Virus record (IMG/VR): IMGVR_UViG_3300026316_000001
Location: 1-58,911 of that record
Origin: a virus
Direction: 5' to 3' (one strand)
DNA length: 58,911 nucleotides
A model generated the notes under the pieces. The model saw nothing but the letters and a program-made list of their open reading frames with translations. It searched no databases and was not told where the DNA came from. This document shows, piece by piece, positions 2,775-47,494 of this stretch (positions within the stretch are counted from its first letter, which is position 1; the number at the start of each line of letters is the position of its first letter). A program made the translations under genes and the position numbers.

Positions 2775-2801
2775 GTCTGTTTCCTCTCTCCAGGTGTAGT
2801 G

Positions 2802-5212: not shown

Positions 5213-5214
5213 CG

Positions 5215-5254
5215 CAGAGGCCGGTCCGTTTCCCCCGTGGCGGATCGGCCTCTG
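5215..5254 (+). terminator. Hairpin after the loader-like gene
   Basis: cagaggccg (5215-5223) pairs with cggcctctg (5246-5254), 3 nt after the TAG at 5210-5212. Confidence 0.45.
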
Positions 5255-5306
5255 TCGTACCCCTGCTGTATAGTGTGGGTACACACCTGAAGCGAGGAGA
5301 CCTCCC

Positions 5307-6857: not shown

Positions 6858-7384
6858 GCGCGAGCATGAGTCGAGCCGATCTGATGCGCGTGCAGGTCAT
6901 GGGGGTAGCGCTGGCCGCTGCTGCCCGTGACCTACTGGAGGGCGAGGCCCGCGAGGAGTGGGAGGGGCCGAACCGAACCCGGGTGACCTGGAGCTCCCCC
7001 GGCTTCGTGGCCGCCGCGTCGATCACCAACCGGACGCTGGAGGTGATCGACGACCAGGAGTTTCTTGCCTGGGTGTCCGAGCAGCACCCCGGCGAGGTGA
7101 TCATAGTGCGCCGGGCGCGCAATACCGAGTGGCTGAAGCAGCTCCGCGACCAGCTCGCCGCCGATGTGGCCGCCGGCCGCGAGGACGCTCCACCTGGAAC
7201 GAAGCTCTACGACGGCGACGAGTTCAAGGCGCTGGCCATCACGCCCGACCGCGAGCTGAAGCGCGCGATGTTCGAGGCCGCCCGGATGGCGATCATGCAC
7301 GGGGTATGGCCCGACGCTCCATCCATGTGGAACGCCGTGCAGGCCCTCATGAAGGGCGAGGAAACGACCGACCCGACCGGTTGA
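6854..7384 (+). CDS. Hypothetical protein (176 aa)
   Basis: GTGA overlap with the ERF stop; high GC3. Confidence 0.6.
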   Translation: MSASMSRADLMRVQVMGVALAAAARDLLEGEAREEWEGPNRTRVTWSSPGFVAAASITNRTLEVIDDQEFLAWVSEQHPGEVIIVRRARNTEWLKQLRDQLAADVAAGREDAPPGTKLYDGDEFKALAITPDRELKRAMFEAARMAIMHGVWPDAPSMWNAVQALMKGEETTDPTG

Positions 7385-7410
7385 CATAGGTGTCAAGCAT
7401 GGCCTAACAT
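7381..7410 (+). promoter_or_regulatory. Candidate promoter with a palindromic -35 box
   Basis: TTGACAtaggTGTCAA (7381-7396); TTGACA, 18 nt, TAACAT (7405-7410); followed by AGCGATACACCTGGAGGGCCACATG. Confidence 0.5.
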
Positions 7411-7441
7411 GTATCTCATAGCGATACACCTGGAGGGCCAC

Positions 7442-7630
7442 ATGAAGCAACTCACCCGGTACCAGCTCGAAGGCCTGCGCGAGCTGGTACAGCAGGAGAT
7501 GGACGGCATCGAGAGCGGTGATCTGGTGGTCGCCGACCCTGCCGGCGCCCTGTGCGAGCTGCGCGACCTGCGCACCGACCTGGAAGCCATGTACCACGCC
7601 ACCCCCGACACCGGGACGGAGCTGCTGTGA
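7442..7630 (+). CDS. Hypothetical protein (62 aa)
   Basis: ATG 5 nt after ACACCTGGAGG (7426-7436); MKQLTRYQLEGLRELVQQEM. Confidence 0.6.
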   Translation: MKQLTRYQLEGLRELVQQEMDGIESGDLVVADPAGALCELRDLRTDLEAMYHATPDTGTELL

Positions 7631-20311: not shown

Positions 20312-20321
20312 GTGGCGCAGC

Positions 20322-20786
20322 TTAGTCCAGCGCCAGACCGAAACCCACCTTGCCGCTGGCGGCGCTGTACCCGGTCACCTGGAAGTCGCGCGCCCGGCCG
20401 ATCCGGCGCATCGGCTCGCGCAGGAACGGCTGGCCCTTGGTGCCCGGGTGCCGGACCACCTTGCGGAAGTGCACCACGCCGGGCGGCACCTCGAAGCGCA
20501 GGAACTGGGCGCGTCGGGCGCGGATCAGGTGTGGGCTAGTCGCGTCGTGCACGAAGTGGCTGTACTTCGCCTTGGAGTAGACCTGCCCGATCACCAGCTT
20601 GCGGCTCACGCGCATCTTCATGCCGATCAGGGCGCGCAGGTTGCCGGTACGCACGGGCGCCTCGATGCGAGCGGCGTTCATGATCAGGCGCGTCGTTTCG
20701 GCCACGTACGGCGAGCCGTAGCCGGCGGCGATCGACAGCAGCACGACGCGTGGCTTCAGCTCAACCCGAATCTTGGTCGTCGCCAT
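20322..20786 (-). CDS. HK97 gp10-like head-tail joining protein (154 aa)
   Basis: NAARIEAPVRTGNLRALI...YSHFVHDATSPHLI...VRHPGTKGQPFL matches the gp10-family pattern. Confidence 0.65.
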   Translation of the reverse strand: MATTKIRVELKPRVVLLSIAAGYGSPYVAETTRLIMNAARIEAPVRTGNLRALIGMKMRVSRKLVIGQVYSKAKYSHFVHDATSPHLIRARRAQFLRFEVPPGVVHFRKVVRHPGTKGQPFLREPMRRIGRARDFQVTGYSAASGKVGFGLALD

Positions 20787-21000
20787 CCGCACCCTCCTCC
20801 CGCAGGTAGCCCATCTGAACGAGCGCGAGCGTGCGGCCATCGGCCCTCAACCGGTACAGCTCGCCGGCCGCGAAGTCATCGAAGTTGACCATCGCCCGGT
20901 ACGCGCCCGGCCCGACGGTCGGCTCCTCGGGCTCCGACAGCGGGACCTCGACGGCCACGGGGCGGATGCTCTTGCGCGGCCGGCGTTCACCTGGAGGCAT
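20761..21000 (-). CDS. Hypothetical head-tail region protein (79 aa)
   Basis: ATG 21000 five nt after the upstream TGA; MPPGERRPRKSIRPVAVEVPLSEPEEP. Confidence 0.5.
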   Translation of the reverse strand: MPPGERRPRKSIRPVAVEVPLSEPEEPTVGPGAYRAMVNFDDFAAGELYRLRADGRTLALVQMGYLREEGADGDDQDSG

Positions 21001-21005
21001 CGTTC

Positions 21006-21545
21006 TCACCCTGCCTGTCCGGCGTCGCAGGCCTCCACCTGGACGTTCAACTTCATCGCGCCGCCCATGCATCCCCCCTCGGCCGCGACCGGATCCCAGC
21101 GACCGGCCTGGTAGTCGATGATCCGCGCGTCCGGGTTCAGCTTCAGGTTCGGCCCCACCCGACGCAGGGCCGCCGCATCGTCGGTGATCACCGTCACGTC
21201 GGCAAGGTAGTCGGCATCGACCGGCGCCATGTCCGCTCCGGGTGAAGTCCTGGAGCAGCGCACCACGCCGATCTCGACCTCCACCGCCCAGCTCACTTCG
21301 CCCTCGGGCAGCCACTGCGACTGCTCCACGGGGAAGTCGTCGGTTGGGTAGATGCCGGTCAGGCGGACCCAGGCCACACCCTCACAGCACTCGTCCACCT
21401 CGGCGGTGAGCGCCACGACAGCGGCCAGGCCGGGCACGTGACGGAAGTGCGTGGGCGCCCCGGCCGGAACCTTGGCCAGCTCCACGCGGAGCGCTGCCAG
21501 GATGTCGATGCACGCCGGCAGGACGGTCGGATCGGCGACGCTCAC
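21006..21545 (-). CDS. Head-tail connector-region protein (179 aa)
   Basis: GTGA overlap; CCEGVAWVRLTGIYPTDDFP is a pattern common in actinophage connector proteins (from memory). Confidence 0.5.
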   Translation of the reverse strand: MSVADPTVLPACIDILAALRVELAKVPAGAPTHFRHVPGLAAVVALTAEVDECCEGVAWVRLTGIYPTDDFPVEQSQWLPEGEVSWAVEVEIGVVRCSRTSPGADMAPVDADYLADVTVITDDAAALRRVGPNLKLNPDARIIDYQAGRWDPVAAEGGCMGGAMKLNVQVEACDAGQAG

Positions 21546-22360
21546 CGGTACCTCGGGAGATCCTGGGAGACCACGCGGGGACGGGAGCGCGCCCGCGACG
21601 GATTCACGGCCAGGATGATCTGATCGACATCGCTCACCCCGGTCAGCCCTTCCTTCAGTAGGTCGCTGAAGCTGACAGTCTGTACGGACACGCCCTGACG
21701 GGTGATGGACGTGATCTTGTTGGGTAGCGCGCAGGTGCCGCCGGTTCGGGCCTTGCCCACCTGGCAGGCGTAGATCGCCACCGCGTTGTTGATCACTACG
21801 GGCACGGGTTCGCCCCGCACGTAGTCAACGCTCCAGGTGTTCGGCTGCCCGAGCGGCTTACTCAGATCCTGAGCGACCGGCCAGGGGTTCCCGTCCTGGC
21901 GCACGAGGAGGTCACCGTCCAGCCGGTAGTTGGCCGGACTGACCGCGACCCCGTCGATCGTGACCGCATTGACCGCGTTGACCGGTCCCGGCAGGGCGAT
22001 CTGCGGCGGGGTGCCGACGCACGAGTCCGCGAAGTTGACAAGCTGGGTACCGCCAGCGACCGCCATCAGGCCCCAGCCGTAGGTGCCCGCGTTACCGCCC
22101 CACGGATCGAAGACCGCCGGGAAGGTCACGTACGTCGGCAGGCCCCTGCCGTACACCGGGCGCACCGTCACCGGACACAGCCCGTACCGCCGGCCGGTCG
22201 CCGCCCAGATCACATAGATGGCGAACTGGAGCGCGTACTCCTGCACGGCCGGCTGGTAGTTGGCCCACGCGGAACACAGGTCGGTGAAGTTCGGGCTCCA
22301 GCCGACCGAGCCGGGCGCCGCCCCCGAGCAGGGACCGTCCACGTTCTGCGCCACGAGCAC
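21542..22360 (-). CDS. Head-to-tail adaptor-like protein (272 aa; start 22360 or 22354)
   Basis: QFAIYVIWAATGRRYGLCPVTVRP resembles the LW..TGR.FG.C..TVRPC adaptor motif (from memory). Confidence 0.5.
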   Translation of the reverse strand: MLVAQNVDGPCSGAAPGSVGWSPNFTDLCSAWANYQPAVQEYALQFAIYVIWAATGRRYGLCPVTVRPVYGRGLPTYVTFPAVFDPWGGNAGTYGWGLMAVAGGTQLVNFADSCVGTPPQIALPGPVNAVNAVTIDGVAVSPANYRLDGDLLVRQDGNPWPVAQDLSKPLGQPNTWSVDYVRGEPVPVVINNAVAIYACQVGKARTGGTCALPNKITSITRQGVSVQTVSFSDLLKEGLTGVSDVDQIILAVNPSRARSRPRVVSQDLPRYR

Positions 22361-22373
22361 TCCTCAGATGCGA

Positions 22374-22419
22374 ATCGGCAGGCCCGGCGCCGTCCCCAAC
22401 GACGCGCGGACCTGCCGAT
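22374..22419 (-). terminator. Strong hairpin after the 171-aa structural gene
   Basis: atcggcagg (22374-22382) pairs with cctgccgat (22411-22419). Confidence 0.45.
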
Positions 22420-22434
22420 AGCGTAACCGCCCGG

Positions 22435-22950
22435 TCAGGCGCTGGAGCCGATGATCACCACGTCGTAGGTGACCGAGGTACCGGCACCCGAGTTGGCGAT
22501 CTGCCAGATGTCGCCCGTGGCGGCCGTGACCGCGTAGGCGGTAGCGTCCGGCGCGTACAGCGCGAGGAATCCGCCCGGCCGTACCGTGAGCGTGTGCGCC
22601 GCCGCGCCCACCCAGTTAATGAAGGCGTTCGCGCCCGCGCCGCCCACGATCACGTTGTTCGTGTTGGCCGCCGCCGCCGCAACGTAGAGGAACTTCACGC
22701 GCAGAAGGCTCATCGTGGTGCCCACCGCGTCCACCAGCACGCCGTTGAGGTCCAGCGGGTCGGTACCGGAGGCGGCGATGGTCCGGGTGTCGGCGAACAG
22801 ACGGTCCGCCTGGTTGGCCCCGGTGCCCGAGGCGAGCTGAGCCGCCTTGGCCAGCGCGAGGACCGCCTGGACGCTCTGCTGGGCCTTCGGGTTGTTGATC
22901 GTGGCCTGGATGTTCAGGCTGATCAGTTGGCTATCGAGACTCTGCGCCAT
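22435..22950 (-). CDS. Structural protein of unknown role (171 aa)
   Basis: ATG after GGAAAGGA; beta-rich sequence; followed by a hairpin. Confidence 0.55.
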   Translation of the reverse strand: MAQSLDSQLISLNIQATINNPKAQQSVQAVLALAKAAQLASGTGANQADRLFADTRTIAASGTDPLDLNGVLVDAVGTTMSLLRVKFLYVAAAAANTNNVIVGGAGANAFINWVGAAAHTLTVRPGGFLALYAPDATAYAVTAATGDIWQIANSGAGTSVTYDVVIIGSSA

Positions 22951-22968
22951 CGCGGCGAATCCTTTCCG

Positions 22969-23646
22969 TTACGGCAGCAGAACCGCGCCGACTGTCGGCG
23001 CCGGGGGTGCCAGGGTGGTGACCTCGGTGTGGAAGTGGTCGAGCGCGTTGATCGCGGTCAGCAGCGGCGAGGCCACCGAGCTGGCGTTGTTGCGCACGTT
23101 GTACGGCCCGGTGCTCCATGGGGAGCTGTTGTGCGTGTGTGCGGTCAGGGTGAACGTGGCCGCCGCGTTCTCCACCACCACGTCACCGAGCTGGCCGTTG
23201 ACCAGGTAGGGCAGCAGCCAGTACCCGTAGGACTTGACGCCCGCCACGCACGCCGCGCCCGCGAGGTCGGTCCAGCCCTCCAGGGCGAACTGGTTGGTGA
23301 CCCCCTCGCGCGAGCGCCAGCCGATGACGTTGGGGGTGCCGGCGTCGTCGAGCACCAGCGGCGCCCCGGTGATCAGGTTGACCAGGGCGGGGTCCACGCT
23401 GACGAACTCCAACGTCGCCTCCCACCAGCGCAGCAGGGGCAGACCTTCCTCGTTGATCTCCAGCTCATCGTTCGCGTTGCGCACCAGGTACGAGGTGTTG
23501 CTCTCGTAGTTCGGGTGCAACGTCGCCTTCACGAAGCCCTTGTTGATCACGGTCGAGGAAGGCCCGTGCACCACCGCGCCGCACACGTCGAGCAGGGTGA
23601 CCCGCATCACCTTGCCCTTGAATCGGCGCATCTGGGTCGTGGCCAT
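22969..23646 (-). CDS. Possible major tail (tube) protein (225 aa)
   Basis: FKGKVMRVTLLDVCGAVVHGPSSTVINKGFVKATL is tail-tube-like by eye; assignment uncertain because it lies upstream of the connectors. Confidence 0.35.
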   Translation of the reverse strand: MATTQMRRFKGKVMRVTLLDVCGAVVHGPSSTVINKGFVKATLHPNYESNTSYLVRNANDELEINEEGLPLLRWWEATLEFVSVDPALVNLITGAPLVLDDAGTPNVIGWRSREGVTNQFALEGWTDLAGAACVAGVKSYGYWLLPYLVNGQLGDVVVENAAATFTLTAHTHNSSPWSTGPYNVRNNASSVASPLLTAINALDHFHTEVTTLAPPAPTVGAVLLP

Positions 23647-24026
23647 CAGGCGCTACCTCCGGACTCCCCGGCACTCGCCGCCGCCTTGCCGCGCCGCGAG
23701 CGCCGGCCGGTGGTGCCCGAGTCGGCGGTGCCCTCGTCCTGCGCGGCCTCGTCCTGCGCGCCCGCGTCTGGCGCGCTCTCGCTCTCGTCCTGTGTACCCT
23801 CGTCGTCGGCCACGTTCAGTGCGGCCATCCGCGCGCCGTGCGCCTCGGCGATGTGGTCGGGCACCCGCACCACGCCGCCGTGCGGCTTGTCCGGCCGGGG
23901 GTACCAGTTGATCGCCGGGATGTCCAGGTCGGGGCTTCCGTGTTCACCGGAGCCGGCCAGGGCCAGGATCTCCTGCATCTGCTCCTGGATGCCCCTCGTG
24001 GGGTCGAGGATGATCTCCGCTGCCAT
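23646..24026 (-). CDS. Hypothetical structural-module protein with an acidic C-terminus (126 aa)
   Basis: ATG after AAGGAAGAG; TGATG overlap with the next gene. Confidence 0.55.
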   Translation of the reverse strand: MAAEIILDPTRGIQEQMQEILALAGSGEHGSPDLDIPAINWYPRPDKPHGGVVRVPDHIAEAHGARMAALNVADDEGTQDESESAPDAGAQDEAAQDEGTADSGTTGRRSRRGKAAASAGESGGSA

Positions 24027-24035
24027 GTCTCTTCC

Positions 24036-24965
24036 TTACGCCCTGGTGACCTTGATCGTGGCCACGAAGCACTCGACACCGATCATGTAGTTGCGGAACG
24101 CGTACAGACCACGCTGGTTGGTGGTCTTGTCCAGCAGTTGGTCCGGCGGCGAGACCCAGATCTTCGGGTCACGCCAGACGATCACCCGCCCGGTCGCCCA
24201 CATGTATTCGCTGGTCGCGTCCACGGCCTGCCCGGTGGGACCGGTACCGGAGTACCCGTTGCCGAAGTTCCACAGATTCAGGTTGTTCGTATACATGTAC
24301 GTCTTTTCGGGCGTAGGCGGTAGGCCGATCACCCGGAACTGCCCGGCCGCGCCCGCGTACGCCGCGATCTGCGGCCGAGCGTGCAGGGTCGCCTGGCCGT
24401 AGTAGTTGTCGGCCGCCTTCTGTTCCAGCAGGGAGACGGCCTCCTTCACCGTGGCCGCCGTCCCCAGATCGAAGTACATGCCGGCCGGCGCCGCCGCCGC
24501 GAACTGCGCCAGAATCCCGTTCGCCACGCCCGCGATCCCCGCGCTACCAGCCGCGCCCGGGGTGGTGCCCCAGTAGTTCTGCTGATTGGTGAACAGGGTG
24601 GTCGTGCCACCCCAGAACGCCCGCTCGGCCACCTGCTGTTCGGTCTTCAGTACCCGCTGCGTGACCCGCCGGACGGCCTCCTCGTTGTCATAGCCGATCC
24701 GGCCGGTGAACAGCGAGGCGTACGCGGCGAACGGCCACGCCTGGGCCAGCGGCTCGATCGCCTGCGCGGTGAACGCCGTATACGGCGGTGTCAGGCAGGC
24801 GGTCGGGTACAGCAGGCCCAGCGCGCACGTGTCCGGCTGCCAGACCGCGCCGGAGGTCTGCGCGTGGTCCGGCAGGTCCAGCGGACCTTCGGCCACGTTG
24901 AACAGACCCGGCGGGACCGGTGGCGCGTCCGGCGGGTTGCGCAGATAGCTCGGCGGTTGGGGCAC
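24036..24965 (-). CDS. Structural protein with an HK97-capsid-like sequence pattern (309 aa)
   Basis: EEAVRRVTQRVLKTEQQVAERAFWGG...ATLHARPQIAAY...NQRGLYAFRNYMIGVECFVATIKV parallels the layout of Phage_capsid-family proteins (by eye). Confidence 0.4.
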   Translation of the reverse strand: MPQPPSYLRNPPDAPPVPPGLFNVAEGPLDLPDHAQTSGAVWQPDTCALGLLYPTACLTPPYTAFTAQAIEPLAQAWPFAAYASLFTGRIGYDNEEAVRRVTQRVLKTEQQVAERAFWGGTTTLFTNQQNYWGTTPGAAGSAGIAGVANGILAQFAAAAPAGMYFDLGTAATVKEAVSLLEQKAADNYYGQATLHARPQIAAYAGAAGQFRVIGLPPTPEKTYMYTNNLNLWNFGNGYSGTGPTGQAVDATSEYMWATGRVIVWRDPKIWVSPPDQLLDKTTNQRGLYAFRNYMIGVECFVATIKVTRA

Positions 24966-24966
24966 G

Positions 24967-25386
24967 TCAGCGCGGCTTCACGTAGATGATGTACGAGCTG
25001 GCCGGGATGATCAGCCCGGTACCGGTGGCGACCTGGTTCACGTCGAGCACGTCGCCGGCCTTGACCTCCAGGTTGGCCGGGGTGGCGTTGAGCGCGAACT
25101 GCTCGGCCACGCTCTGCACGGAGTTACCCGCCGACCAGGCCCGGGAGGCGACCGCCGTGGTGCCGGCCAGCCCGTTGGTGCCCTTGTTGCGAACCGTGAG
25201 GGTACGGAAGTTGCCGCCGTTGGCGGTGATGGCCGCCGAGGGCACGAACAGCACCCGCGTGATGGTTCCATCGAATGGCATCATCGGCGAGAAGTTGGCG
25301 TTGACGCCGTTGGTGGCCGCGTCGGTGGCCGCCGCGAAGACCGTGATCGGGAAGCCGAGTCCGGCCATTTCCTTCAGCAGGTCCAT
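24967..25386 (-). CDS. Small structural protein, possible head decoration (139 aa)
   Basis: ATG after GGAAGGGGGAAG; immediately downstream of the capsid gene and its hairpin. Confidence 0.45.
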   Translation of the reverse strand: MDLLKEMAGLGFPITVFAAATDAATNGVNANFSPMMPFDGTITRVLFVPSAAITANGGNFRTLTVRNKGTNGLAGTTAVASRAWSAGNSVQSVAEQFALNATPANLEVKAGDVLDVNQVATGTGLIIPASSYIIYVKPR

Positions 25387-25411
25387 GATCTTCCCCCTTC
25401 CGGGGAGGTTG

Positions 25412-25431
25412 GGGGCCGGTCGCCCGGCCCC
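25412..25431 (-). terminator. Tight GC hairpin directly after the capsid gene
   Basis: ggggccgg tcgc ccggcccc: 8-bp stem with a tetraloop, 14 nt 3' of the stop at 25445. Confidence 0.5.
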
Positions 25432-25444
25432 GCGCCCGTCAGGG

Positions 25445-27181
25445 TCAGCCGGTCACCATGTTGGTGGTGGCCGAGGTGGTGCCGCTCGGGTCGATCGTCA
25501 TCTTGATCATGCGCGACTCGAAGCCCCGCTTGATCACCTGGATGCCGTCTTCCGTGAACAGCCGCACGTACTGGTTGAGCGCCAGGTTGGTGCTGTCGTA
25601 CACCGTGTCCAGGCGGATCACGTCGGCCACGCCACGCACCCAGGTACCGGCCGCGTACAGCAGCATGTAGAGCGTGGTGGGCAGGGTGTAGACCCCCGCA
25701 CTCTGACCGACCGTGGTCGCGGTGTTAGGGCTGCCGGTGCTGTTCAGCGCCTCCTGCCAGTCATAGACCCACTGGACCCGCGCGTTGCGCAGCGCGAACC
25801 ACGCTTCGATCTGGGACTGCGCCAGCTCGAAGGCGTCGTCGCGGTCCACGCCCATGCGCCGCTGCACGTCGGCGCGGATCGACTCGATCACCCAGAAGGG
25901 CAGCACGCACTCCAGGGTGGCCGCGAACGGCATCCGGTACTTGTACCGGTAGTCCATGATCTGGATGCCGGCGACGGCCAGCAGCCGCGACAGCGCGGTC
26001 AGATCCTTGAACTCGGTCGTGGTCACCGGCAGGTTGGTCACGTTGGTGTAGTCGAAGACCGTCGATCCGTTGGCCACCTTGTTGATGGCGAAGATGTTCA
26101 GCTTGCGCTTGTGCGCGACCATCGCACCCCGGATGAACCGCTCCACCACCTCCGGGTACCCCCGGTCCTGGAGGAAGGCCCCGGTGATCTGGACGCCCTC
26201 CACCTCCAGGCGGTTGTCCGTGAAGGACGGGCACGGCACGACCATCGTCGGCTTGGAGGTGGCCGCGACGACCTGCGCCTCCGTCTGGTGCCAGTAGCCG
26301 GCGCCACCGAAGATCGCGGAGAAGTCGGGACCAGGCGTGACCTGCACGCCGCCCCGGTGGATCTGCAACTCCGGCAGATCGAGCTGCCCGTCGTTGCCGT
26401 CCTCCAGCTCGAACAGGTCGTACAGGATCTCGCTGGGCGCGCACCAGCCGGCCGCCGCCGTCAGCGTGGCCAGGCCGGGATCCTTGGCCGCCGCGTCCAG
26501 CTTGGCCCACGCCTGCGTGAGCGTGTCTTCCTTGGTGATGCTCAGCTCAGCCGGGTACTCACGGCGAAGCTGGATGACGTTGGTCCGGTGGAAGGCACCC
26601 GGGCCGAGGTCGCCGAACGCGGCCATGGAGTCTTCCATGGTCTTGGCCATGCCCGCGAGGTCGTCGAACTCCTCGCCGGGCCGGCGGCCGGCCGCGCCGT
26701 TGGCCGCCAGCGCCTTGGTGTAGGACTGGCGGGCCTCTCCGGTGCCCACGTTCGGCCCGGTGGTCTGCGGCTGGCTACCGGCCGCCGCCGCGACCGCACC
26801 GACGCCGGGCGCGGTGACCTTCTCGCCGCCGTCCTTGTCGTCCTTGGCCGGCTCGGCCGGTGGGGTTCCCTCACTCGGCGGCGTGGAGGCCGCCGGCTGG
26901 CCGAATGCCGCCGCCGCCTTGCCGGCCCGGCCGGTCTTGTCGGCGCCCTGCTCGGCAGCCTTGGCGCGCTCCTCACGCTGATCCCCGACGCCCGCCACCA
27001 CGCCGGACAGTCGCTCCAGCGTGTTCAGCTCGTCGTCGGACAGGGGCTCGCCCTCGTTGTACTTCTTGACGATCGGATCGGCCGCCGCGCGGGCGACCTC
27101 GTCCAGCTCGTCAAGCTGCTCGTCGGTCACCACCGAGAAGTCGGTGGGGAGCTGGATCTCATCAATGGTCATGGTTGCCAT
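25445..27181 (-). CDS. Major capsid protein with an N-terminal scaffold/delta-like domain (578 aa)
   Basis: About 200 aa of acidic, low-complexity N-terminus, then AAAGWCAPSEILYDL...NQYVRLFTEDGIQV, capsid-like; no separate scaffold gene; hairpin follows. Confidence 0.6.
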   Translation of the reverse strand: MATMTIDEIQLPTDFSVVTDEQLDELDEVARAAADPIVKKYNEGEPLSDDELNTLERLSGVVAGVGDQREERAKAAEQGADKTGRAGKAAAAFGQPAASTPPSEGTPPAEPAKDDKDGGEKVTAPGVGAVAAAAGSQPQTTGPNVGTGEARQSYTKALAANGAAGRRPGEEFDDLAGMAKTMEDSMAAFGDLGPGAFHRTNVIQLRREYPAELSITKEDTLTQAWAKLDAAAKDPGLATLTAAAGWCAPSEILYDLFELEDGNDGQLDLPELQIHRGGVQVTPGPDFSAIFGGAGYWHQTEAQVVAATSKPTMVVPCPSFTDNRLEVEGVQITGAFLQDRGYPEVVERFIRGAMVAHKRKLNIFAINKVANGSTVFDYTNVTNLPVTTTEFKDLTALSRLLAVAGIQIMDYRYKYRMPFAATLECVLPFWVIESIRADVQRRMGVDRDDAFELAQSQIEAWFALRNARVQWVYDWQEALNSTGSPNTATTVGQSAGVYTLPTTLYMLLYAAGTWVRGVADVIRLDTVYDSTNLALNQYVRLFTEDGIQVIKRGFESRMIKMTIDPSGTTSATTNMVTG

Positions 27182-27453
27182 GGGGCAGCGCCTCTCTCGT
27201 CGCTACGAAACCCCACGCTCCCGACCGGCCCACCGCCAGCGCCAGACGCGCATTCGTTGGGCCGCACTCTACCTGGATGGATCAATGCCGGGCAAGAATC
27301 ACCGACACCTGGCGACATGTTCAGGCTGGCCTTACACTCGAAGTACGGTGGGTGGCACGCGTACCAGGCGAGGCTTCCTTCCTTCAGGTGAGAGAGGCGT
27401 CTTCCTTCCAGGTGGGGAGGGCGCCTCTCGCCGTTTCCCCAGCTAGATGCCGG

Positions 27454-27481
27454 TTGACAGGGCTGTCAACCCCTGTATACA
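27454..27481 (+). promoter_or_regulatory. Candidate promoter with a palindromic -35 box for the plus-strand insert
   Basis: TTGACAgggcTGTCAA (27454-27469); TTGACA, 16 nt, TATACA (27476-27481) with TG just upstream; then AGCGATACACCTGGAGGGGCCACATG. Confidence 0.5.
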
Positions 27482-27519
27482 GTGGCTACACAAGCAAGCG
27501 ATACACCTGGAGGGGCCAC

Positions 27520-27744
27520 ATGTTCACCAAGACCACCATCAGCGCCACGTTCACCGTTAGCCGGCTTTCCCAGTCGCGCTTCATGGCCGCCATCGAGCAG
27601 GCCGAGCGACAGACCGGATGTCGGGTGCTGGTTTCGGTCACGCGGTGCGGGCTGTTCAGCTCCGATCTGAACCTCCAGGTCACGGGCACCCCGGCCGCCA
27701 TCCGGATCGCCGGGCGAATCATGGACGAGGTCATCGCGCGGTGA
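27520..27744 (+). CDS. Hypothetical protein (74 aa), plus-strand insert gene 1
   Basis: ATG 6 nt after ACACCTGGAGG (27503-27513); MFTKTTISATFTVSRLSQSRFMAAIEQAERQTG. Confidence 0.6.
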   Translation: MFTKTTISATFTVSRLSQSRFMAAIEQAERQTGCRVLVSVTRCGLFSSDLNLQVTGTPAAIRIAGRIMDEVIAR

Positions 27745-27770
27745 CCAGGCAGAGGCAGGGGAATCAGCCA

Positions 27771-28229
27771 ATGATCAAGGTGGATCGCGTGGAACTCCTC
27801 GACCAGCTCGCCACGCTGGTCGAGGAGTTCCACGCCCGAGCACGCGCCCTGTACGGGTCGCCGGCCCTGGAGCAGTACAGCCCGAGCGCCATCGCCCGCG
27901 ACTACGCGGCGGCGCTCGTGCTCGGGGGCGGCGAACTCGCCGAGCACGCGGCGCGCGAGGTGGCCATGGCGCTGGTGGGGGAGCGCGCGTTCGACGACGA
28001 GGCGTTCTGGCGTACCCCGCTGGGGCGGGTCATCGCCTGGTACATCGGCTTCCCGCGCGAGCGCGTGCAGACCTCGCTGGTCGGGACGCTGCTCGGCACG
28101 AGCCGCCAGTACGGTTACCGCGCGGTAGTTGATCTCGATAAGGAGCTGCGGGACGGATCGGTGACGGTCCCGTCCGAAGGGGTTCGCCAGCTCCTGAGGG
28201 TTCGGCAGCGAACGCTCGCGGTCACCTGA
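27771..28229 (+). CDS. Hypothetical protein (152 aa), plus-strand insert gene 2
   Basis: ATG after GGCAGGGGAATCAGCCA; MIKVDRVELLDQLATLVEEFHARARALYG. Confidence 0.6.
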   Translation: MIKVDRVELLDQLATLVEEFHARARALYGSPALEQYSPSAIARDYAAALVLGGGELAEHAAREVAMALVGERAFDDEAFWRTPLGRVIAWYIGFPRERVQTSLVGTLLGTSRQYGYRAVVDLDKELRDGSVTVPSEGVRQLLRVRQRTLAVT

Positions 28230-28241
28230 CCTGCATGGCCG

Positions 28242-28279
28242 ACAGGCCCGGTTCTCCACCTGAAGGAGGCCGGGCCTGT
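28242..28279. terminator. Bidirectional hairpin between convergent genes
   Basis: acaggcccgg (28242-28251) pairs with ccgggcctgt (28270-28279), with inner CTCC/GGAG pairing. Confidence 0.55.
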
Positions 28280-28305
28280 GTCGTGCCGGTGTGTGAATAG
28301 CGAGC

Positions 28306-28539
28306 CTACTGCACGTGCTCCGTGGTGCCGACGTTCGGGGCATCGCCCTGGACCGGCGCCACGCTGCCGTCCTCGTGGATCACGCCCGGCCCGGCATAGT
28401 CCGGCTGCGCCGGCTGCGCCACGGTGGCCGCCGCCGTACCCGCCGGCTGCACCGTCCCAGGCTGCACCGCCTCGGCCTGCTCGCTCTCGGCCGGTACCCG
28501 ATCGTTCTCAGCCGCTTCGTCGGTCGTGTCGTTGGCCAT
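28306..28539 (-). CDS. Acidic hypothetical protein (77 aa)
   Basis: ATG after GGGAGGCAGCGCG; MANDTTDEAAENDRVPAESEQAEAV. Confidence 0.55.
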   Translation of the reverse strand: MANDTTDEAAENDRVPAESEQAEAVQPGTVQPAGTAAATVAQPAQPDYAGPGVIHEDGSVAPVQGDAPNVGTTEHVQ

Positions 28540-28595
28540 CGCGCTGCCTCCCTGCTCGCGTGTGACGCTGCACGCCGCCGGGTACCCGGTAGGCC

Positions 28596-28754
28596 ATGGA
28601 CCTACTCCTGATCATCCTGCTGATCCTGGGCGTGCTGGCGATAGCAGCCTACGCTTTCTCGCCGCGAGCACGCGCGCTGGTGATCCACCTCGGGTGGGCC
28701 GGACTGTTCCTGATCTTCCTCGGCGAGCTGATCGCCCGCTGGCCAAAGCACTGA
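28596..28754 (+). CDS. Small 2-TM membrane protein (52 aa; below the ORF-track cutoff)
   Basis: Translated by hand: MDLLLIILLILGVLAIAAYAFSPRARALVIHLGWAGLFLIFLGELIARWPKH; high GC3, while the antisense gene's frame has low GC3 over the same bases. Confidence 0.45.
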   Translation: MDLLLIILLILGVLAIAAYAFSPRARALVIHLGWAGLFLIFLGELIARWPKH

Positions 28755-28959
28755 CCGACAGCTCGATACGATCCAGTCGCTCCAGCACGGCACGATCGTC
28801 GGCCGCCTCGGACGCGGACCAGTCGCTGGCCACGTTCGCGTACAGGGAGGCGATCCACACCAGCACGATCGAATGCGCCCATCCGAACGGGAACGACAGC
28901 ACGCCCACGACCATCCAGGCGATCGACCTGGATCGGTGGAACCAGACCCGCCAGTTCAT
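28612..28959 (-). CDS. Membrane protein (115 aa); its 3' third overlaps the convergent plus-strand ORF
   Basis: ATGA overlap; MNWRVWFHRSRSIAWMVVGVLSFPFGWAHSIVLVWIASLYANV; the coding signal is lost after about 28755. Confidence 0.5.
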   Translation of the reverse strand: MNWRVWFHRSRSIAWMVVGVLSFPFGWAHSIVLVWIASLYANVASDWSASEAADDRAVLERLDRIELSVSALASGRSARRGRSGTVRPTRGGSPARVLAARKRRLLSPARPGSAG

Positions 28960-29141
28960 CGCCGCGCCAGCACGTACACCGCGACGGCCAGGGCCACGAG
29001 GACGGCAACGAGGAACGGGACCAGGGTGCTGCCCAGCTTGCCGATCGGTGTACGGCGCTCCATCCACGCCCACACCCGACCCACCAGGATCAGCACTAGC
29101 AGCGCGCCGGCCAGCAGCAGCCAGTCGCCCGCGCTCAGCAC
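28956..29141 (-). CDS. Small 2-TM membrane protein (61 aa)
   Basis: GTG 29141; VLSAGDWLLLAGALLVLILVGRVWAWMERRTPIGKLGSTLVPFLVAVLVALAVAVYVLARR. Confidence 0.5.
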   Translation of the reverse strand: MLSAGDWLLLAGALLVLILVGRVWAWMERRTPIGKLGSTLVPFLVAVLVALAVAVYVLARR

Positions 29142-29464
29142 GGGCAGTGGTGCGTGCGGCTGTGCTCGGCGTTGGGCCAGTGTCCGGTGGCCCGCTTCTC
29201 CAGGTTGGCGCACAGGCCCTTGGGGTCCTTCGGGTAGTACTTGCCGGCGTGCGTGAGGCAGCGGCAGAACGCACAGGGCTCCGGCCAGCGGATCTTCGCC
29301 GCGCCCCTCCCGTGCGCCCAGTACTCCATCAGCTTCTCGGTGGATGCGGGGTGCATCGCGGTACCGACCGAGGCGAACGCGCCGGGCCAGGGCTCGCTCA
29401 CGTCCTGACGCGCCATGGTCGCCAGGTCGGCAATGAGCCGGTCGATCTCCTGCACGGGGGTCAC
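29135..29464 (-). CDS. Cys/His-rich conserved actinophage head-module protein (109 aa)
   Basis: GTGA overlap; EKLMEYWAHGRGAAKIRWPEPCAFCRCLTHAGKYYPKDPKGLCANLEKRATGHWP, a motif recalled from actinophage capsid-morphogenesis proteins. Confidence 0.55.
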   Translation of the reverse strand: MTPVQEIDRLIADLATMARQDVSEPWPGAFASVGTAMHPASTEKLMEYWAHGRGAAKIRWPEPCAFCRCLTHAGKYYPKDPKGLCANLEKRATGHWPNAEHSRTHHCPC

Positions 29465-29625
29465 CGGCCGGACTCCTCGCTGCTGTCGTGCTCCTCGCCG
29501 GTCTCCTGGTCGCGGTACCGGGTGGATCCGCAACGCGGACACGTGTTCCAGATGAACGGGTACTGCACGACGCATCCGAGGCAGACACGCGGCAGCCGGT
29601 CTTCGGGCAGTGGCTGATCGGTCAC
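29461..29625 (-). CDS. Zinc-ribbon mini-protein (54 aa; below the ORF-track cutoff)
   Basis: GTGA overlaps at both ends; VTDQPLPEDRLPRVCLGCVVQYPFIWNTCPRCGSTRYRDQETGEEHDSSEESGR (CxxC...CxxC). Confidence 0.5.
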   Translation of the reverse strand: MTDQPLPEDRLPRVCLGCVVQYPFIWNTCPRCGSTRYRDQETGEEHDSSEESGR

Positions 29626-31052
29626 GAGACACCTACCACGGGTACGAAGGTGGTTGCTGTTCCGGAGGCGGTCGGGTCGAACGAGCCGGGGATCGCCGTC
29701 TGGCCGGACAGGATCGTACAGCGCCTCTTCGTGACCCCCACGCCAAGATCGAACCAGGGCGCGTGGGCGTCGTTGGCAGAGCTGAGGAACGGCACGTTGG
29801 GCGCGACCGTCATGCCCCGGTGAAGCGGCAGGATGTAGACGAACCGCCCGGCACCCTGGCTGGCCACGACACCGCCCGCGAGCGCACCGCCCCGCCAGCC
29901 GTTGCTCGTCCAGATGGACGGTGTCTCGGCGGTCGCGTCCACCAGTACCCCGGCATCAGTGAACAGGGCCAGCTTGTTGCCGGCCGTCGCGCCATCCCAG
30001 GTGCCGGCGTCCCGCACCCCGACGTGCAGGTTGGTGATCGCCACGCCGGCCGGAATCCACAGCCGCGTGGCGAAGATCGTGTTGTTGCCGAACGTCGAGG
30101 TGCCCATGTCCGACTCGGGATTGACCGAGCAGGCCAGCAGGCCATACCCGGCCAGCGGGAAGATCTGATCCATGCCCGAGCTACCGGCGGCCGGAGTCGC
30201 CCACTTGATTCCGCTGGCCTGCGTCGAGTCGGCGGTGAGCACCTGCGTGTTGGAGCCCACGCCCAGTCGGGCGGGGGTGCTGGCGCCAGTGGCCACGAAC
30301 AAGTCGCCCTTGGTGGTCAGCGTCGCCTTGTCGACCTTGGCCGCGAGGTCGGTGACCAGGCTGGTCACGTCCCCCTCGACGTGCCCGTGGCCGGTCGCCG
30401 ACTTGCCTGCCAGGCCGGGCACGGTCGGCGCGGCAGCGGTACCGGACAGGTCGCCCGCGAGCTGCACGACGCCCTTCGCGCCGGCCGTGGCGTCGCTGAC
30501 CGCCAGGGTCCGGTCAGCGGTCAGGTTCCCGCCGCCGGTCAGCGGCGCCGTGGTGTTGATCGAGCGGGTCAGCGGTACCCCGCCGCCTCCGCCGCTGCCC
30601 GCGTTGGCGAGCTGGGTCGCCGGCACCTGGCCGGCACCGTCGAGCGACGCCACGCCGTTGGCCTGCCCGAGCTGCGAGGCGAGCAGGTACGGGCTTAGCG
30701 CGACCACCGCCAGGTGCTGCAAGTTGCCCAGCTTGAACGGGGTACCGGCGGCCGGAAGCTGGATGATGTAGACCCGCACCGGGTAGCCGTCGACCGTCTC
30801 GCGAACCCAGTACCCCCAGCCGGTCGGCGTCAGGTCCGGATCGTCGGTGGCCATGAGGGTGACCGAGAACGCGCCGGCACCGTCCAGCGTCGCGGTCACT
30901 ACGCCGGGCTCCACGAGCTGCTTCGTGCCGGCATCGACAAGGACGGTGGTCGGCCAGAACTCGACCTTTCCGGTCGGTACCGCGCCGGCCGGCTGCGCAG
31001 CCGAGAACAGGCCGTTGACCACGACCTGGGTCACGTCAGCCGGGTACGACAC
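29622..31052 (-). CDS. Fibre-like protein encoded inside the head module (476 aa)
   Basis: GVASLDGAGQVPATQL, GVVQLAGDLSGTAAAPTV and Gly-rich linkers are typical of phage tail-fibre shafts. Confidence 0.6.
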   Translation of the reverse strand: MSYPADVTQVVVNGLFSAAQPAGAVPTGKVEFWPTTVLVDAGTKQLVEPGVVTATLDGAGAFSVTLMATDDPDLTPTGWGYWVRETVDGYPVRVYIIQLPAAGTPFKLGNLQHLAVVALSPYLLASQLGQANGVASLDGAGQVPATQLANAGSGGGGGVPLTRSINTTAPLTGGGNLTADRTLAVSDATAGAKGVVQLAGDLSGTAAAPTVPGLAGKSATGHGHVEGDVTSLVTDLAAKVDKATLTTKGDLFVATGASTPARLGVGSNTQVLTADSTQASGIKWATPAAGSSGMDQIFPLAGYGLLACSVNPESDMGTSTFGNNTIFATRLWIPAGVAITNLHVGVRDAGTWDGATAGNKLALFTDAGVLVDATAETPSIWTSNGWRGGALAGGVVASQGAGRFVYILPLHRGMTVAPNVPFLSSANDAHAPWFDLGVGVTKRRCTILSGQTAIPGSFDPTASGTATTFVPVVGVS

Positions 31053-31061
31053 GGCGGATCC

Positions 31062-31244
31062 TTACACTGCGGCCGGCTGCGCGGGCACGACCACGCCACC
31101 GCCGAGCGCCGTCACGTACGCCTCGGCGGCCACGCGGTCGGTGAACTCCCGGGCCTCGCCGTTGTTGGGCCGCGCGATGACCGTGGCCGGCTCGGCGTTG
31201 ATCGGCCCCGAGGTGACGAGGGAAGCCCCTCCACATCCACACAT
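31062..31244 (-). CDS. Hypothetical protein (60 aa)
   Basis: ATG 4 nt after the protease TAG; MCGCGGASLVTSGPINAEPATVIARPNNGEAREF. Confidence 0.45.
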   Translation of the reverse strand: MCGCGGASLVTSGPINAEPATVIARPNNGEAREFTDRVAAEAYVTALGGGVVVPAQPAAV

Positions 31245-31248
31245 CGAT

Positions 31249-33312
31249 CTATCCCTTTCCCTGACGGGCCGGCGTCCTGGCCGGTCCCGTGATGACGGAC
31301 GCCGCCTGCGCCGCCCGCTTACGCCGCGTGGCAGCCTGGCCCACGCCCATCGCATCATCCATGACGCTCAGCGCCGCGAGCACCCGGCTGCCACGCTCCT
31401 CGGCGCGCTCGGCCTCCCGGGTAGCCCGTACGGTCTGCACGACCAGGGCCTCCAGGTCGGCAGCCGAGAAGACTGGAGGCGCCCCGTCCTCCTCCACCTG
31501 GAGCGTGCCGGCGGCCACCAGGGCGAGCTGCGCCCCGGCGACCATCGAGGCGCGCGGTACCGGGAAGCCCCCCGAGTTGACCGCCAGCGCGTGCACCAGC
31601 TCCAGGTTGCCGCCGATGCGCCGCCAGTCGCCGGACAGCGGGGAACGCTTCAGCTCGGCCAGGTCGGCACCGGGCACGGCCGCGCCGGCCAGCCAGATGC
31701 CGTGCTTGTCCTCGCCGGCCCGGACCACAGCCGCCTGCGCGCTGGTCGAGTCGTAGTGCTCGGCCGCCGCCTGGAAGCCCATCCTGGTGTCGGCGTGGCC
31801 GCCGCCGATGGAGATGCGCCCCACGGCGACCTCGCCCTCGGTGGTGTCCACGGCGCCCGTGTGGAAGTAGGCGTACTGCTTCTTGCTCTTGGGTGGCGTG
31901 GTGCACACGTTCGGCATACCGGTGTGGCAGGTGCCCCACGTGGCCAGGTGGCCGAAGACCCGTCCGTCTGGAGTCACGGTCAGCGGGGTCGGCCCGTCCA
32001 GCTTGGGGTCCGCGAACCAGGCCGCCGGCAGGGCCTGCGGCTCATCGGGGGTAGCCGCCGCCACGATCGCCTCCATGTCCACCGCCGCCGTCACCGCACC
32101 GTGCAACGGCTTCACCTTCTTGGCCGCCACGCCCTTGCGCAACCGGGCCATGCCCTGCCTGCCGTACTTCTTGCGGCCGATCTTGGCCGCGAGCGCCGCC
32201 GGGTTGTCGATGCCCTTGGCCCCGAGCGCCGCCTTCAGCTTCTCGAAACGCGCGCCGAAGGTGGCGGTGCCGGGCTGCTCGCCGGTCAGCTCCTCGGCCA
32301 GGCCGGACACCTGCTGATAGGTCTCATCGTCCAGGGCGGCCAGCGCGGCGGAGATCTCCCGGTCGGTGACGTACTCGCGCAGATCGGCGACCACCTCGCG
32401 CATACGGGCCTGGTCTAGCTCGGGCAGTACGGTGTGTCCGTCGAGCACCTGCGCCGCCGCCGTCAACGCCTGCGGTACGAGCGTGAGCTGACCGTCGATC
32501 ACGTCGGCCAGGGGGAACCGGAACAGGTCATCCTCTCCGTCCACCCAGAGATATCCCTGCGCCAGCAGATCGGTGCGCTCGCCGGCCCACTCACTGATCC
32601 GCCGCGCCGCGCCGGACGCGTCCCACGGGGTATCCAGCGGCGCCACCGCCAGGTCGTCCCATCCCGAGGCGCGCACGGCCGGCGTCAAGGCCATCTTGTG
32701 GGCCTCCAGCTCCGACGAGTAATCGCCAGGCTCCATGTCCATCAGCGGGATCTTGGCCCCCGCCTCGGCGAAAGCCGGAATCGGCACAAGGGTCGCCGCC
32801 GAGATCCGCCCCTTGGTGACCTCGATCTCCGGCCGCTCGCCGGTCGCCGCGTACTGCTCCGGGTCGCCGAGGGCATGGAACTCCATGTCGTCGAGGTCCA
32901 CGCTCGGACCGATCACGCCCTGCTCGATCAGCAGCCGGGCCTCGCGGGCATCCTCGGCCAGCCGGGGAAGCTGCTCCGGGTCCGGGTTGAACAGCAGGCC
33001 GAACCCCCACGGGGCGCCCTCGTCGTCGTAGGTGATTCCGTCCAGGGTGCCCACCACGACAGAGCCGGAGTGGCCCTGTCCGTCCTGGCGCTGCCACTTC
33101 AGCCCGAGGGGCAGGTCGCGATGGCTCAGCGCGCCGGCCGCGAACCGGCGCTTGTCGCCGGTTGGCTTGCCGATGGGCGCGAGCATGACCGGCCCCCAGC
33201 GGGTGACCTTGGTGCCGCGCGGGTCTGCCCCGGTGTCCGGCTCGTTCTCGTCGGTTGCGGTGACGGCCGCGAAGTCGGGGCAGTCGGTGCACGGCTCGTT
33301 GTCGTCGGCCAC
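31249..33312 (-). CDS. Capsid maturation protease, large multi-domain form (687 aa)
   Basis: GTG after GGGAGCCGACC; DGRVFGHLATWGTCHTGMPNVCTTPPKSKKQYAYFHTGAV is a motif recalled from actinophage prohead proteases; position after portal and MuF. Confidence 0.6.
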   Translation of the reverse strand: MADDNEPCTDCPDFAAVTATDENEPDTGADPRGTKVTRWGPVMLAPIGKPTGDKRRFAAGALSHRDLPLGLKWQRQDGQGHSGSVVVGTLDGITYDDEGAPWGFGLLFNPDPEQLPRLAEDAREARLLIEQGVIGPSVDLDDMEFHALGDPEQYAATGERPEIEVTKGRISAATLVPIPAFAEAGAKIPLMDMEPGDYSSELEAHKMALTPAVRASGWDDLAVAPLDTPWDASGAARRISEWAGERTDLLAQGYLWVDGEDDLFRFPLADVIDGQLTLVPQALTAAAQVLDGHTVLPELDQARMREVVADLREYVTDREISAALAALDDETYQQVSGLAEELTGEQPGTATFGARFEKLKAALGAKGIDNPAALAAKIGRKKYGRQGMARLRKGVAAKKVKPLHGAVTAAVDMEAIVAAATPDEPQALPAAWFADPKLDGPTPLTVTPDGRVFGHLATWGTCHTGMPNVCTTPPKSKKQYAYFHTGAVDTTEGEVAVGRISIGGGHADTRMGFQAAAEHYDSTSAQAAVVRAGEDKHGIWLAGAAVPGADLAELKRSPLSGDWRRIGGNLELVHALAVNSGGFPVPRASMVAGAQLALVAAGTLQVEEDGAPPVFSAADLEALVVQTVRATREAERAEERGSRVLAALSVMDDAMGVGQAATRRKRAAQAASVITGPARTPARQGKG

Positions 33313-33322
33313 GGTCGGCTCC

Positions 33323-33559
33323 CTACTGCTGGTCCGGGTCGTCGGGTACGTCGGCAGGATCATCCCACGCCTGGCGGGGCATCTTCTCGATCGCGGCGAC
33401 CTTGTCCTGAATGTCCGAGGGCAGGTCATCCCAGGTGGCCGCCTCGGGACCGCCGGCCGCCAGGTACGCCTGCTGGATCTCGAAGGCTTCGTCGGGGTGC
33501 ACGTCGTGGCCACCCAGCGCGTCGGACAGCCGGTGGTACAGGTCGGTCGTCGCGCTCAC
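33323..33559 (-). CDS. Acidic hypothetical protein (78 aa)
   Basis: GTGA overlap with the giant gene's stop. Confidence 0.55.
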   Translation of the reverse strand: MSATTDLYHRLSDALGGHDVHPDEAFEIQQAYLAAGGPEAATWDDLPSDIQDKVAAIEKMPRQAWDDPADVPDDPDQQ

Positions 33560-47409: not shown

Positions 47410-47494
47410 GTTTCCTCCAGGTGTGGGGGCCTTACATGATAGGTCAAGCCTATCAGCACGGTACGACAGTTTACAGCCCGCGTTCAGATGGCGC

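Follow-up and report, generated by a model that had tools for sequence, protein, structure and literature searches.

An antisense two-gene cassette between virion genes of an uncultured actinophage encodes a candidate regulator of a palindromic promoter class

The stretch analysed here (hereafter the window; 58,911 nt, 69% GC) is the near-complete genome of an uncultured actinophage. A soil-metagenome scaffold in ENA (58,441 nt) was 100% identical to it over 8.2 kb at equal coordinates. Two plus-strand genes, here named casA and casB, were located among the virion genes: the neighbour on the capsid side encodes the major head protein (phrog_777, E = 5.6e-126), and the other neighbours encode a fibre-like protein and a portal/protease-type protein. 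Genes for a replication initiator, an Erf recombinase and an HNH endonuclease lie in the left arm of the window; the parts of the window that were sampled yielded no integrase, repressor or tRNA. The cassette, its flanks and a second site in the left arm comprise the following features.

7381..7410 (+): second promoter of the same operator design, likewise sigma-70-type, TTGACAtaggTGTCAA, TTGACA-18-TAACAT (18-nt spacer), from promoter search
7420..7630 (+): leader common to both units, then gene 7442 (62 aa), which opens a run of about six small plus-strand genes located downstream of the Erf gene
27182..27453 (-): divergent spacer, the capsid gene's own upstream region, containing a conserved element
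27454..27469 (+): palindrome TTGACAgggcTGTCAA (TTGAC-N6-GTCAA), made up of the -35 hexamer and its dyad partner; candidate casB operator
27454..27483 (+): cassette promoter, sigma-70-type, TTGACA-18-TACAGT, from promoter search and profile match
27497..27522 (+): leader AGCGATACACCTGGAGGGGCCACATG, shared with 7420-7444, with motif CACCTGGAGG at 27504-27513 and including the casA start codon
27520..27744 (+): casA, 74 aa, orphan, the swappable part of the cassette, from coding signal, model and homologues
27771..28229 (+): casB, 152 aa, predicted N-terminal helical bundle and C-terminal MerR/excisionase-type winged helix-turn-helix (HTH); conserved block gene and proposed regulator
27787..27835 (+): perfect 21-bp inverted repeat with a 7-nt loop in casB codons 6-22, from folding (-46 kcal/mol)
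28242..28279 (both strands): GC-rich hairpin, terminator-like on either strand, between the convergent casB and gene 28306-28539 (-), from folding

GC3 values were 0.88 for casA and 0.89 for casB, and the overlapping reverse-strand ORFs lacked such a signal. Relatives were sought in cultured phages and in metagenomes. No close relative was found among cultured phages by megablast of 24000-32000, tblastn with casA and casB as queries gave no match in cultured phages, and the best cultured relative of the capsid, that of Actinoplanes phage phiAsp2, was at most 41% identical. Scans of IMG/VR with casB, the exact leader and the Erf recombinase gave no match, and nine IMG/VR contigs had capsids 50-70% identical to that of the window. 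A metagenome scan with the 18-nt leader gave 13 loci, most of them inside one unrelated conserved gene and none related to the window by blastn.

The cassette promoter was the sole promoter-like match in 20000-34000, a 14-kb region of structural genes, and matched a promoter-family profile built from relatives with E = 5e-5. The hairpin beyond casB was stable on the plus strand (-43.6 kcal/mol, z = -5.8) and on the minus strand (-34.2 kcal/mol, z = -3.6), and a hairpin was found at the equivalent place in two related contigs (L001 and L050). With a consensus promoter and a terminator-like hairpin of its own, the cassette has the anatomy of an independent plus-strand unit, as the original prediction from sequence had proposed; the palindromes, their spacings, the shared 25-nt leader, both genes and the hairpin were likewise located where it had placed them.

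The control region of the cassette consists of TTGACAgggcTGTCAA (27454-27469), 27 nt, and a leader of the type found at 7381 with one extra G; at 7381 the order is TTGACAtaggTGTCAA (7381-7396), 23 nt, and AGCGATACACCTGGAGGGCCACATG. The exact pattern TTGAC-N6-GTCA occurs at these two sites only in the 58.9-kb window, against 0.08 expected from shuffles, with the reservation that the left half-site is simply the consensus -35 and that independent information resides in the right half alone. The proposal that two distant units share one operator/promoter design is borne out by these sole two sites. The match of the 7381 promoter to the family profile of the relatives was confined to the -35/palindrome half. 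A reading of the palindrome as a bidirectional -35 was rejected by eye, the upstream flanks having no conserved -10 on the other strand. Exact-protein look-ups of the 7442 region returned the same phage alone, at 100% identity, and gave no record for gene 6854-7384. Since the 7381 unit lies in the replication/recombination region (replication initiator, Erf), the early schedule that had been suggested for the cassette is plausible; its lysogeny-like variant finds no integrase or repressor among the sampled genes to go with it.

The leader 18-mer AGCGATACACCTGGAGGG occurs exactly twice in the window, and four matches were found with up to three mismatches, against 0.08 expected. Its core, CACCTGGAGG, is a genome-wide start-associated motif and is not private to the two flagged genes: 14 exact copies are present in the window, nine of them 4-8 nt before a start codon (ATG in 8/9), all nine in non-structural regions or in the cassette, and relatives carry the motif too. 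Private to the two flagged leaders are just the flanking 7 and 8 nt. The casA leader of L025, a contig about 95% identical to the window, differs at two positions. Cluster K mycobacteriophages have start-associated sequences (SAS/ESAS) with the 13-bp consensus GGGATAGGAGCCC, located 3-7 bp before starts, and these resemble CACCTGGAGG in being asymmetric, in having a Shine-Dalgarno core, in standing just before mostly ATG starts of non-structural genes, and in that some copies have an upstream inverted repeat (PMC3203893). The phage motif is CACCTGGAGG, however, not GGGATAGGAGCCC, and the upstream inverted repeat here overlaps a recognisable promoter.

All nine capsid-matched IMG/VR contigs carry an antisense block between the capsid gene and the portal/protease gene, with gene counts from 6 to more than 10; at two genes, the block of the window is the smallest. 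A casB-family gene lies antisense to the capsid in every covered block (tblastn and HMM profile): the profile recovered one block member that tblastn had missed, and the sole contig without casB is truncated. The blocks repeat one promoter design, TTGACAnnnnnGTCAA, about 5 nt, TGTAtgcT, about 5 nt, CATACA. A search for this family was anchored on the -10/+1 half alone, avoiding circularity, and 27 of its 29 matches in relatives carried the palindrome, one exception being the reverse-strand reading of a match already counted. The family has at least 36 members across relatives, with up to seven copies per block, all facing the block direction, and its phage sites include 25 exact N6 palindromes and no N7. 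From these comparisons the antisense block appears ancestral to the clade, hypervariable, and reduced to a minimum in the window. Two terms of the original prediction do not survive: the cassette is not an "insert", as an antisense block of the same promoter class occupies the site in every relative, and its control region is not a "copy" of an early-region module, as it belongs to this large family and shares part of its leader with a genome-wide motif.

The conserved gene of the block, casB, differs between the window and a close relative by 20 synonymous and four non-synonymous codons. An exhaustive search of 1.84 billion representatives gave 47 relatives at E <= 1e-3, mostly of about 150 aa; W80, G85 and G93 are invariant in the family alignment and R112-Q113 nearly so. 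The AlphaFold (AF2) model (pLDDT 96.4, pTM 0.89) comprised a 95-residue N-terminal helical domain, a four-to-five-helix bundle without a structural match, and a C-terminal domain of beta-alpha-alpha-beta-beta-alpha order (E98-100, H101-108, H112-118, E125-127, E130-134, H135-151). Foldseek against the PDB ranked the RacA-DNA complex best for this domain (prob 1.0), with TraN, BldC, RdfS and Pukovnik Xis also matched (prob 0.82-1.0, target TM 0.6-0.66); the small size of the domain keeps the E-values weak (0.09-1), but the set of matches is coherent. As expected of a winged helix, its 55-60 residues superimpose on the winged HTHs of RacA, BldC and an excisionase (5i44, 6ama, 4j2n; identity 18-26%). 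In casB, unlike these proteins, the HTH is C-terminal behind a helical bundle, an arrangement that also departs from the canonical MerR architecture, in which an N-terminal winged HTH leads into a long coiled-coil dimerisation helix and an effector domain at the C-terminus. Matches in the viral structure library BFVD were named excisionase or MerR-like HTH, and a sequence-profile search of the PDB with the casB family returned helical-bundle noise and nothing else. The remote-homology check recommended with the original prediction thus yielded a winged helix for casB (RacA, Xis, BldC) and, as described below, a KH-like fold for casA.

RacA binds the palindrome TGACGCCGGCGTCA, in which an arginine reads the TpG step (PMC4914108), and the phage palindrome has equal TGAC/GTCA half-sites and an equal 6-bp spacer. 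The functions of the structural relatives differ: RacA anchors the chromosome, BldC recognises direct repeats, and the role of Xis proteins is in recombination. On the strength of its modelled fold and of the link between its family and the palindrome in cellular genomes (below), casB is most likely a DNA-binding protein that regulates the TTGAC-N6-GTCAA promoter class. In L028, a distant phage-like contig whose casB is 32% identical, TTGACAcccaTGTCAA...TATACT directly follows the casB gene.

Profile search indicated that the casB family is widespread in the chromosomes of Micromonosporaceae and other actinomycetes, where all members are unnamed; the chromosomal homologue is located directly upstream of an alpha/beta-hydrolase gene. 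Fifty-three chromosomal loci, gathered with a single chromosomal member as query, were compared. An exact TTGAC-N7-GTCAA palindrome was found within 160 nt upstream of the homologue's own start at 42/53 loci, whereas among 903 control windows taken from these loci just one had it, and degenerate versions were present at the loci without an exact one. The spacer was N7 in 71 of 72 sites, with half-sites fixed and spacer bases free to vary. Tandem sites were 21 bp apart in all 30 cases, the second abutting the ribosome-binding site. The downstream hydrolase gene was kept at 45 loci and the upstream gene at eight. The upstream palindromes, together with a hydrolase that is kept and an upstream neighbour that is not, point to autoregulation by the casB family, and the pattern would be that usually seen with a dimeric transcription factor controlling its own gene. 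This association between family and palindrome is correlative, and the phage N6 and cellular N7 spacers imply that the two groups need different dimer geometry.

The first gene of the cassette behaves differently from casB. Just three homologues of casA were found, all at least 95% identical. Its single-sequence AF2 model (pLDDT 81) has beta-alpha-beta-beta-alpha order and matched type-I KH domains by Foldseek (FUBP1, PCBP, hnRNP K; E = 1.7e-5, TM about 0.6), with one long helix where KH (beta-alpha-alpha-beta-beta-alpha) has two. The Pfam KH_1 match (E = 0.018, 15.2 bits, under the 21.5-bit cut-off) agrees with the Foldseek result. The GXXG loop of type-I KH domains is absent from residues 15-32, so that casA can be described as KH-like by its model, and nucleic-acid binding is a suggestion. 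The possibility that casA is a fragment of the relatives' 165-aa protein was rejected, as the two show no similarity. That idea had come from a "2'-5' RNA ligase" label on P0008, which is a recombinant or an assembly chimera.

The cassette exists in at least four versions among contigs that share about 95% identity with the window. The window itself has casA-casB, L025 has 168aa-casA-casB, L014 to L020 have 113aa-74aa-165aa-casB, and L024 has a 165aa::casA fusion together with a damaged casB. When the window is compared with L014, homology ends at 27471, two bases past the palindrome, and resumes at 27771 with the casB start codon; a 299-bp module (27472-27770: -10, leader and casA) stands in for 1087 bp of L014. 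L025 aligns with the window in two segments, 1-183 and 750-3207, which overlap on a 47-bp direct repeat containing the palindrome, so that the window equals L025 minus its first promoter-plus-gene module. Judged from these junctions, the conserved promoter appears to act as the recombination joint for cargo modules, and casA as cargo that is exchanged together with a promoter and leader of its own. Presence or absence among close relatives, the test of a moron and a comparison recommended at the outset, divided the cassette: the casA module varies, and casB is found in all relatives, in every covered block. The description of the genes as swappable cargo therefore applies to casA and not to casB.

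These results bear on a reading close to the original prediction, in which the cassette is a moron-like insert, both genes are exclusion, defence or counter-defence cargo, and the shared control region gives an early schedule only. The morons of lambdoid phages, reportedly described by Juhala and colleagues in 2000, are units in which one gene or a few stand between a promoter and a terminator, set among conserved virion genes. Morons and the hypervariable regions of actinophages resemble the cassette as promoter-gene-terminator modules between virion genes that vary among close relatives, and the cassette indeed has its own promoter and terminator, a site that is hypervariable among 95%-identical phages, and an orphan in casA that comes and goes with its own promoter. 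The same block in distant relatives also carries genes for NADAR (E = 3.9e-22) and ADP-ribosylglycohydrolase (E = 1.3e-62), and the site is an accessory-gene hot spot. Unlike morons, however, the cassette is antisense and clade-ancestral, with many repeats of one promoter design, and includes a conserved regulator gene: casB is in every block with its DNA-binding fold, and its family is tied to the palindrome in cellular genomes. PADLOC-DB (E <= 0.1) gave no match for casA, casB, gene 7442 or the relatives' cassette proteins, and PHROGs and Pfam gave no defence-related match for casA or casB. We consider it improbable that both genes are such cargo. The idea of a typical home for defence genes keeps its hot spot and loses the defence role, given the empty PADLOC result and the fold of casB.

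The symmetry of the palindrome has a second possible source. In many copies of the relatives the arms reach 13-14 bp, and the outer arms differ yet stay complementary: their covariation was 0.286 against 0.169 +/- 0.020 in shuffles (reached in 0/500) and 0.10-0.22 with slid partners, and as the pair next to the core, 16 copies have G-C and 13 have C-G. Internal promoters, those preceded by a gene, were enriched in long arms (mean MFE -17.7 vs -10.6 kcal/mol, p = 0.005). Covarying long arms at internal promoters imply that many copies double as the terminator or 3' hairpin of the upstream gene, and part of the symmetry thus appears to serve a hairpin rather than a protein. Taken further, the palindrome would be a structural element, an upstream terminator or 3'-end hairpin fused to the next -35 with its short form kept at first promoters by descent, and casB would regulate something else, for instance by activating the late capsid promoter. 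In the capsid upstream region (27182..27453), an element at 27222-27240, some 230 bp away from the cassette promoter, is indeed conserved across the clade; it has a -10-like TAGAGT but no TTGACA, a combination typical of activator-dependent promoters. Against this reading, the 5-bp core palindrome is present at 10/10 first promoters, where no gene on the same strand precedes that could need a terminator, and the two copies in the window fold weakly (-8 and -11 kcal/mol), so that an operator role is still called for; moreover, the cellular tandem sites, phased by 21 bp beside the gene's own ribosome-binding site, have the layout of an operator and not of a terminator, and the two roles are not mutually exclusive. 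A purely structural palindrome with casB acting elsewhere is, in our assessment, unlikely. Another fold lies within casB itself: the 16-bp core of its inverted repeat is invariant in L014, L020, L024 and L025 and missing in L001, L004 and L005. Rfam matches on 27000-28800 were discarded as spurious miRNA-precursor calls on this perfect hairpin.

It is very improbable that casB instead serves as an excisionase (recombination directionality factor) or as an architectural protein that binds DNA in packaging or replication. Pukovnik Xis, RdfS and phage proteins named excisionase are among its fold matches, and the nearest Pfam family is HTH_17 (PF12728; matched weakly by 18 of 39 family members, best E = 4.7e-4, with no Pfam match for casB of the window itself), but the sampled genes include no integrase, excisionases lack the 95-residue N-terminal helical domain, and the chromosomal homologues are found in a regulator-plus-hydrolase operon with upstream tandem palindromes.

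We therefore return to casB as a regulator of the palindromic promoters. From the anatomy and conservation of the cassette, the fold of casB and the association of its family with the palindrome, we infer its binding and also the sign and timing of its action. The cassette would be the smallest form of a conserved block of antisense early genes lying between two virion-gene units; in it, host RNA polymerase starts at the cassette promoter, whose -35 hexamer is half of the TTGAC-N6-GTCAA palindrome, passes casA and casB, and ends at the hairpin 28242-28279. casB, a predicted dimer-type winged-helix protein of an uncharacterised actinobacterial family, would bind both palindromes, at its own promoter and at the 7381 promoter heading the operon of small early genes. 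As the palindrome covers the -35, binding would most likely repress, giving negative autoregulation and a timed shut-off of both units; repression would also relieve the late virion genes of opposing transcription. casA would arrive with its promoter and leader on a module recombining at the conserved promoter sequence. Taken as a whole, a minimal antisense early block in which casB regulates its own promoter and the 7381 early operon, probably as a repressor, and casA is cargo, is the account we favour, at slightly better than even confidence. A MerR-like casB bound between the -35 and -10 could activate instead; relative to canonical MerR, the predicted operator has a -35/-10 spacer of 18 bp, not 19-20, and the palindrome includes the -35 hexamer. 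A different regulator could also exist, as annotation covered part of the genome.

An evolutionary extension of this account is more tentative, and we hold it to be possible rather than probable. Cellular members of the casB family would autoregulate via tandem CTTGAC-N7-GTCAAG sites; Micromonosporaceae phages would have captured casB, retuned it to N6 and fused the operator to the -35 of early promoters, so that one protein silences an antisense island in the late virion operon while the promoter serves as the cargo joint; and casA may bind the C-rich leader that it has in common with gene 7442.

Phage regulators with dispersed operators are already known. In L5 (gp71 stoperators) and phiC31 (conserved inverted repeats), one phage protein acts at many short sites at early promoters. 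Those proteins are immunity repressors of temperate phages; here no lysogeny functions were found in the sampled genes, and the site is fused to the -35. A precedent for a repressor of this kind is Gp36 of the lytic actinophage D29, a small protein with a MerR-like HTH whose sites lie upstream of the early as well as late genes that it represses (PMC12266134). It differs from casB as an excisionase remnant of about 60 aa that acts at GC-rich direct repeats (PMC12266134), whereas casB has 152 aa, a predicted palindromic site on the -35, and cellular homologues with operators of their own. The present analysis adds a predicted operator, well supported by the comparison of genomes, for an unnamed actinobacterial HTH family.

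The model reduces to one protein, one 16-bp site and two promoters in the phage, and is cheaply testable; in relatives this site is present at up to seven promoters per block. The operator prediction extends to family members in the antibiotic producers Micromonospora, Actinoplanes, Amycolatopsis and Nonomuraea. A conserved promoter would serve as the joint for swapping accessory genes inside a block of virion genes, which bears on where to seek counter-defence genes in uncultured actinophages, and the cassette may supply compact promoter, operator and regulator parts for high-GC hosts.

The sequence CACCTGGAGG is a start-associated motif that occurs window-wide. Of its 14 exact copies in the whole window, nine sit 4–8 nt 5' of a start codon, and beyond these nine, two further ones carry one mismatch. 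All start-associated copies are located at non-structural genes, and no pairing is possible between the 16S rRNA tail and the CACCT part of the motif. It is analogous to the start-associated sequences of Cluster K mycobacteriophages. The start-associated copies are as follows:

121, 1386, 2796, 44505, 44843, 46449, 47423 and 56837, minus strand
7427, 8742 and 27504, plus strand

A similar sequence, CACCTG(G)AAGGAAG, is present twice in tandem on the capsid-sense strand (27382–27414, minus), approximately 200–235 nt 5' of the capsid start, but has no start codon adjoining it.

Several other possible regulatory sites were located:

1407–1436, minus strand, TTGACA-18-TATCGT, resembling a promoter, 5' of the DUF932 gene
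about 47430–47460, minus strand, inverted repeat TGATAGGcttgaCCTATCA directly 5' of a start-associated motif and GTG start
27222–27240, minus strand, TGCTGGCnGTGGGCCGrTCGAGC element
near 27263–27268, minus strand, TAGAGT, approximately 25 nt upstream of that element
27787–27835, within casB codons 6–22, inverted repeat whose 21-bp arms match perfectly around a 7-nt loop (−46 kcal/mol)

The spacer of the DUF932-gene promoter holds a different inverted repeat, ACACCTCcatctGGAGaGGTGT, which suggests a second operator type, and TGATAGGcttgaCCTATCA is possibly another regulatory site. The TGCTGGC element occurs once in the window and lies 30–60 nt before the capsid start in every relative, where a −10-like TAnnnT precedes it and TTGACA is missing. 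It could form a small hairpin, with a few compensatory changes, and is a candidate late promoter or leader for the capsid-tail unit. The repeat inside casB, the conserved gene of the antisense blocks, begins 16 nt past the start codon. Its 16-bp core is unchanged in four close relatives, the loop and flanks being variable, and distant relatives lack the repeat. Its role could be that of a brake on casB translation, a transcription attenuator, or a protein site.

Among 53 actinomycete chromosomal loci (L051–L103), a casB-like HTH gene and an alpha/beta-hydrolase gene form a conserved operon (position ~1340–1500 in each). In front of it stand CTTGAC-N7-GTCAAG sites in tandem, spaced by 21 bp. 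The operon occurs in Micromonospora, Actinoplanes, Amycolatopsis, Nonomuraea and Saccharothrix, among others. The HTH gene and its tandem sites are an unannotated, predicted regulator-operator pair.

The virion block contains a second small antisense gene:

28596–28754, plus strand, 52-aa hydrophobic, membrane-like protein (GC3 0.83)

Its counterpart in the more distant relative L001 is 61% identical, and the gene is also called in the relatives L014 and L050. A promoter for it was not found. In the close relative L024, the N-terminal half of a 165-aa gene is joined in frame to the C-terminal 57 residues of casA (5196–5579), alongside a disrupted casB (5606–6060). This fusion is either a real recombinant or a chimeric metagenome assembly. 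Its JGI label, "2'-5' RNA ligase", was unsupported in this analysis.

A polymorphic injected-effector region is formed by the MuF-type virion protein:

33556–38517, minus strand, 1653 aa, NUDIX domain at residues 1263–1375

In the homologues of L014, L015, L016 and L050, an ADP-ribosyltransferase toxin domain replaces NUDIX, and homology between the window and L014 is lost over 33299–37567. The casA sequence co-occurs only with the NUDIX variant, in a tiny sample (the window and L024). Antisense blocks of distant relatives carry genes for NADAR and ADP-ribosylglycohydrolase, enzymes that reverse ADP-ribosylation:

L005 1832–2452 and L004 3689–4750
L006 503–1120, L008 2851–3417 and L009 5079–5660, further genes by similarity

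These enzymes might act against a DarT-type defence of the host, or else against the phage's own ADP-ribosyltransferase effector.
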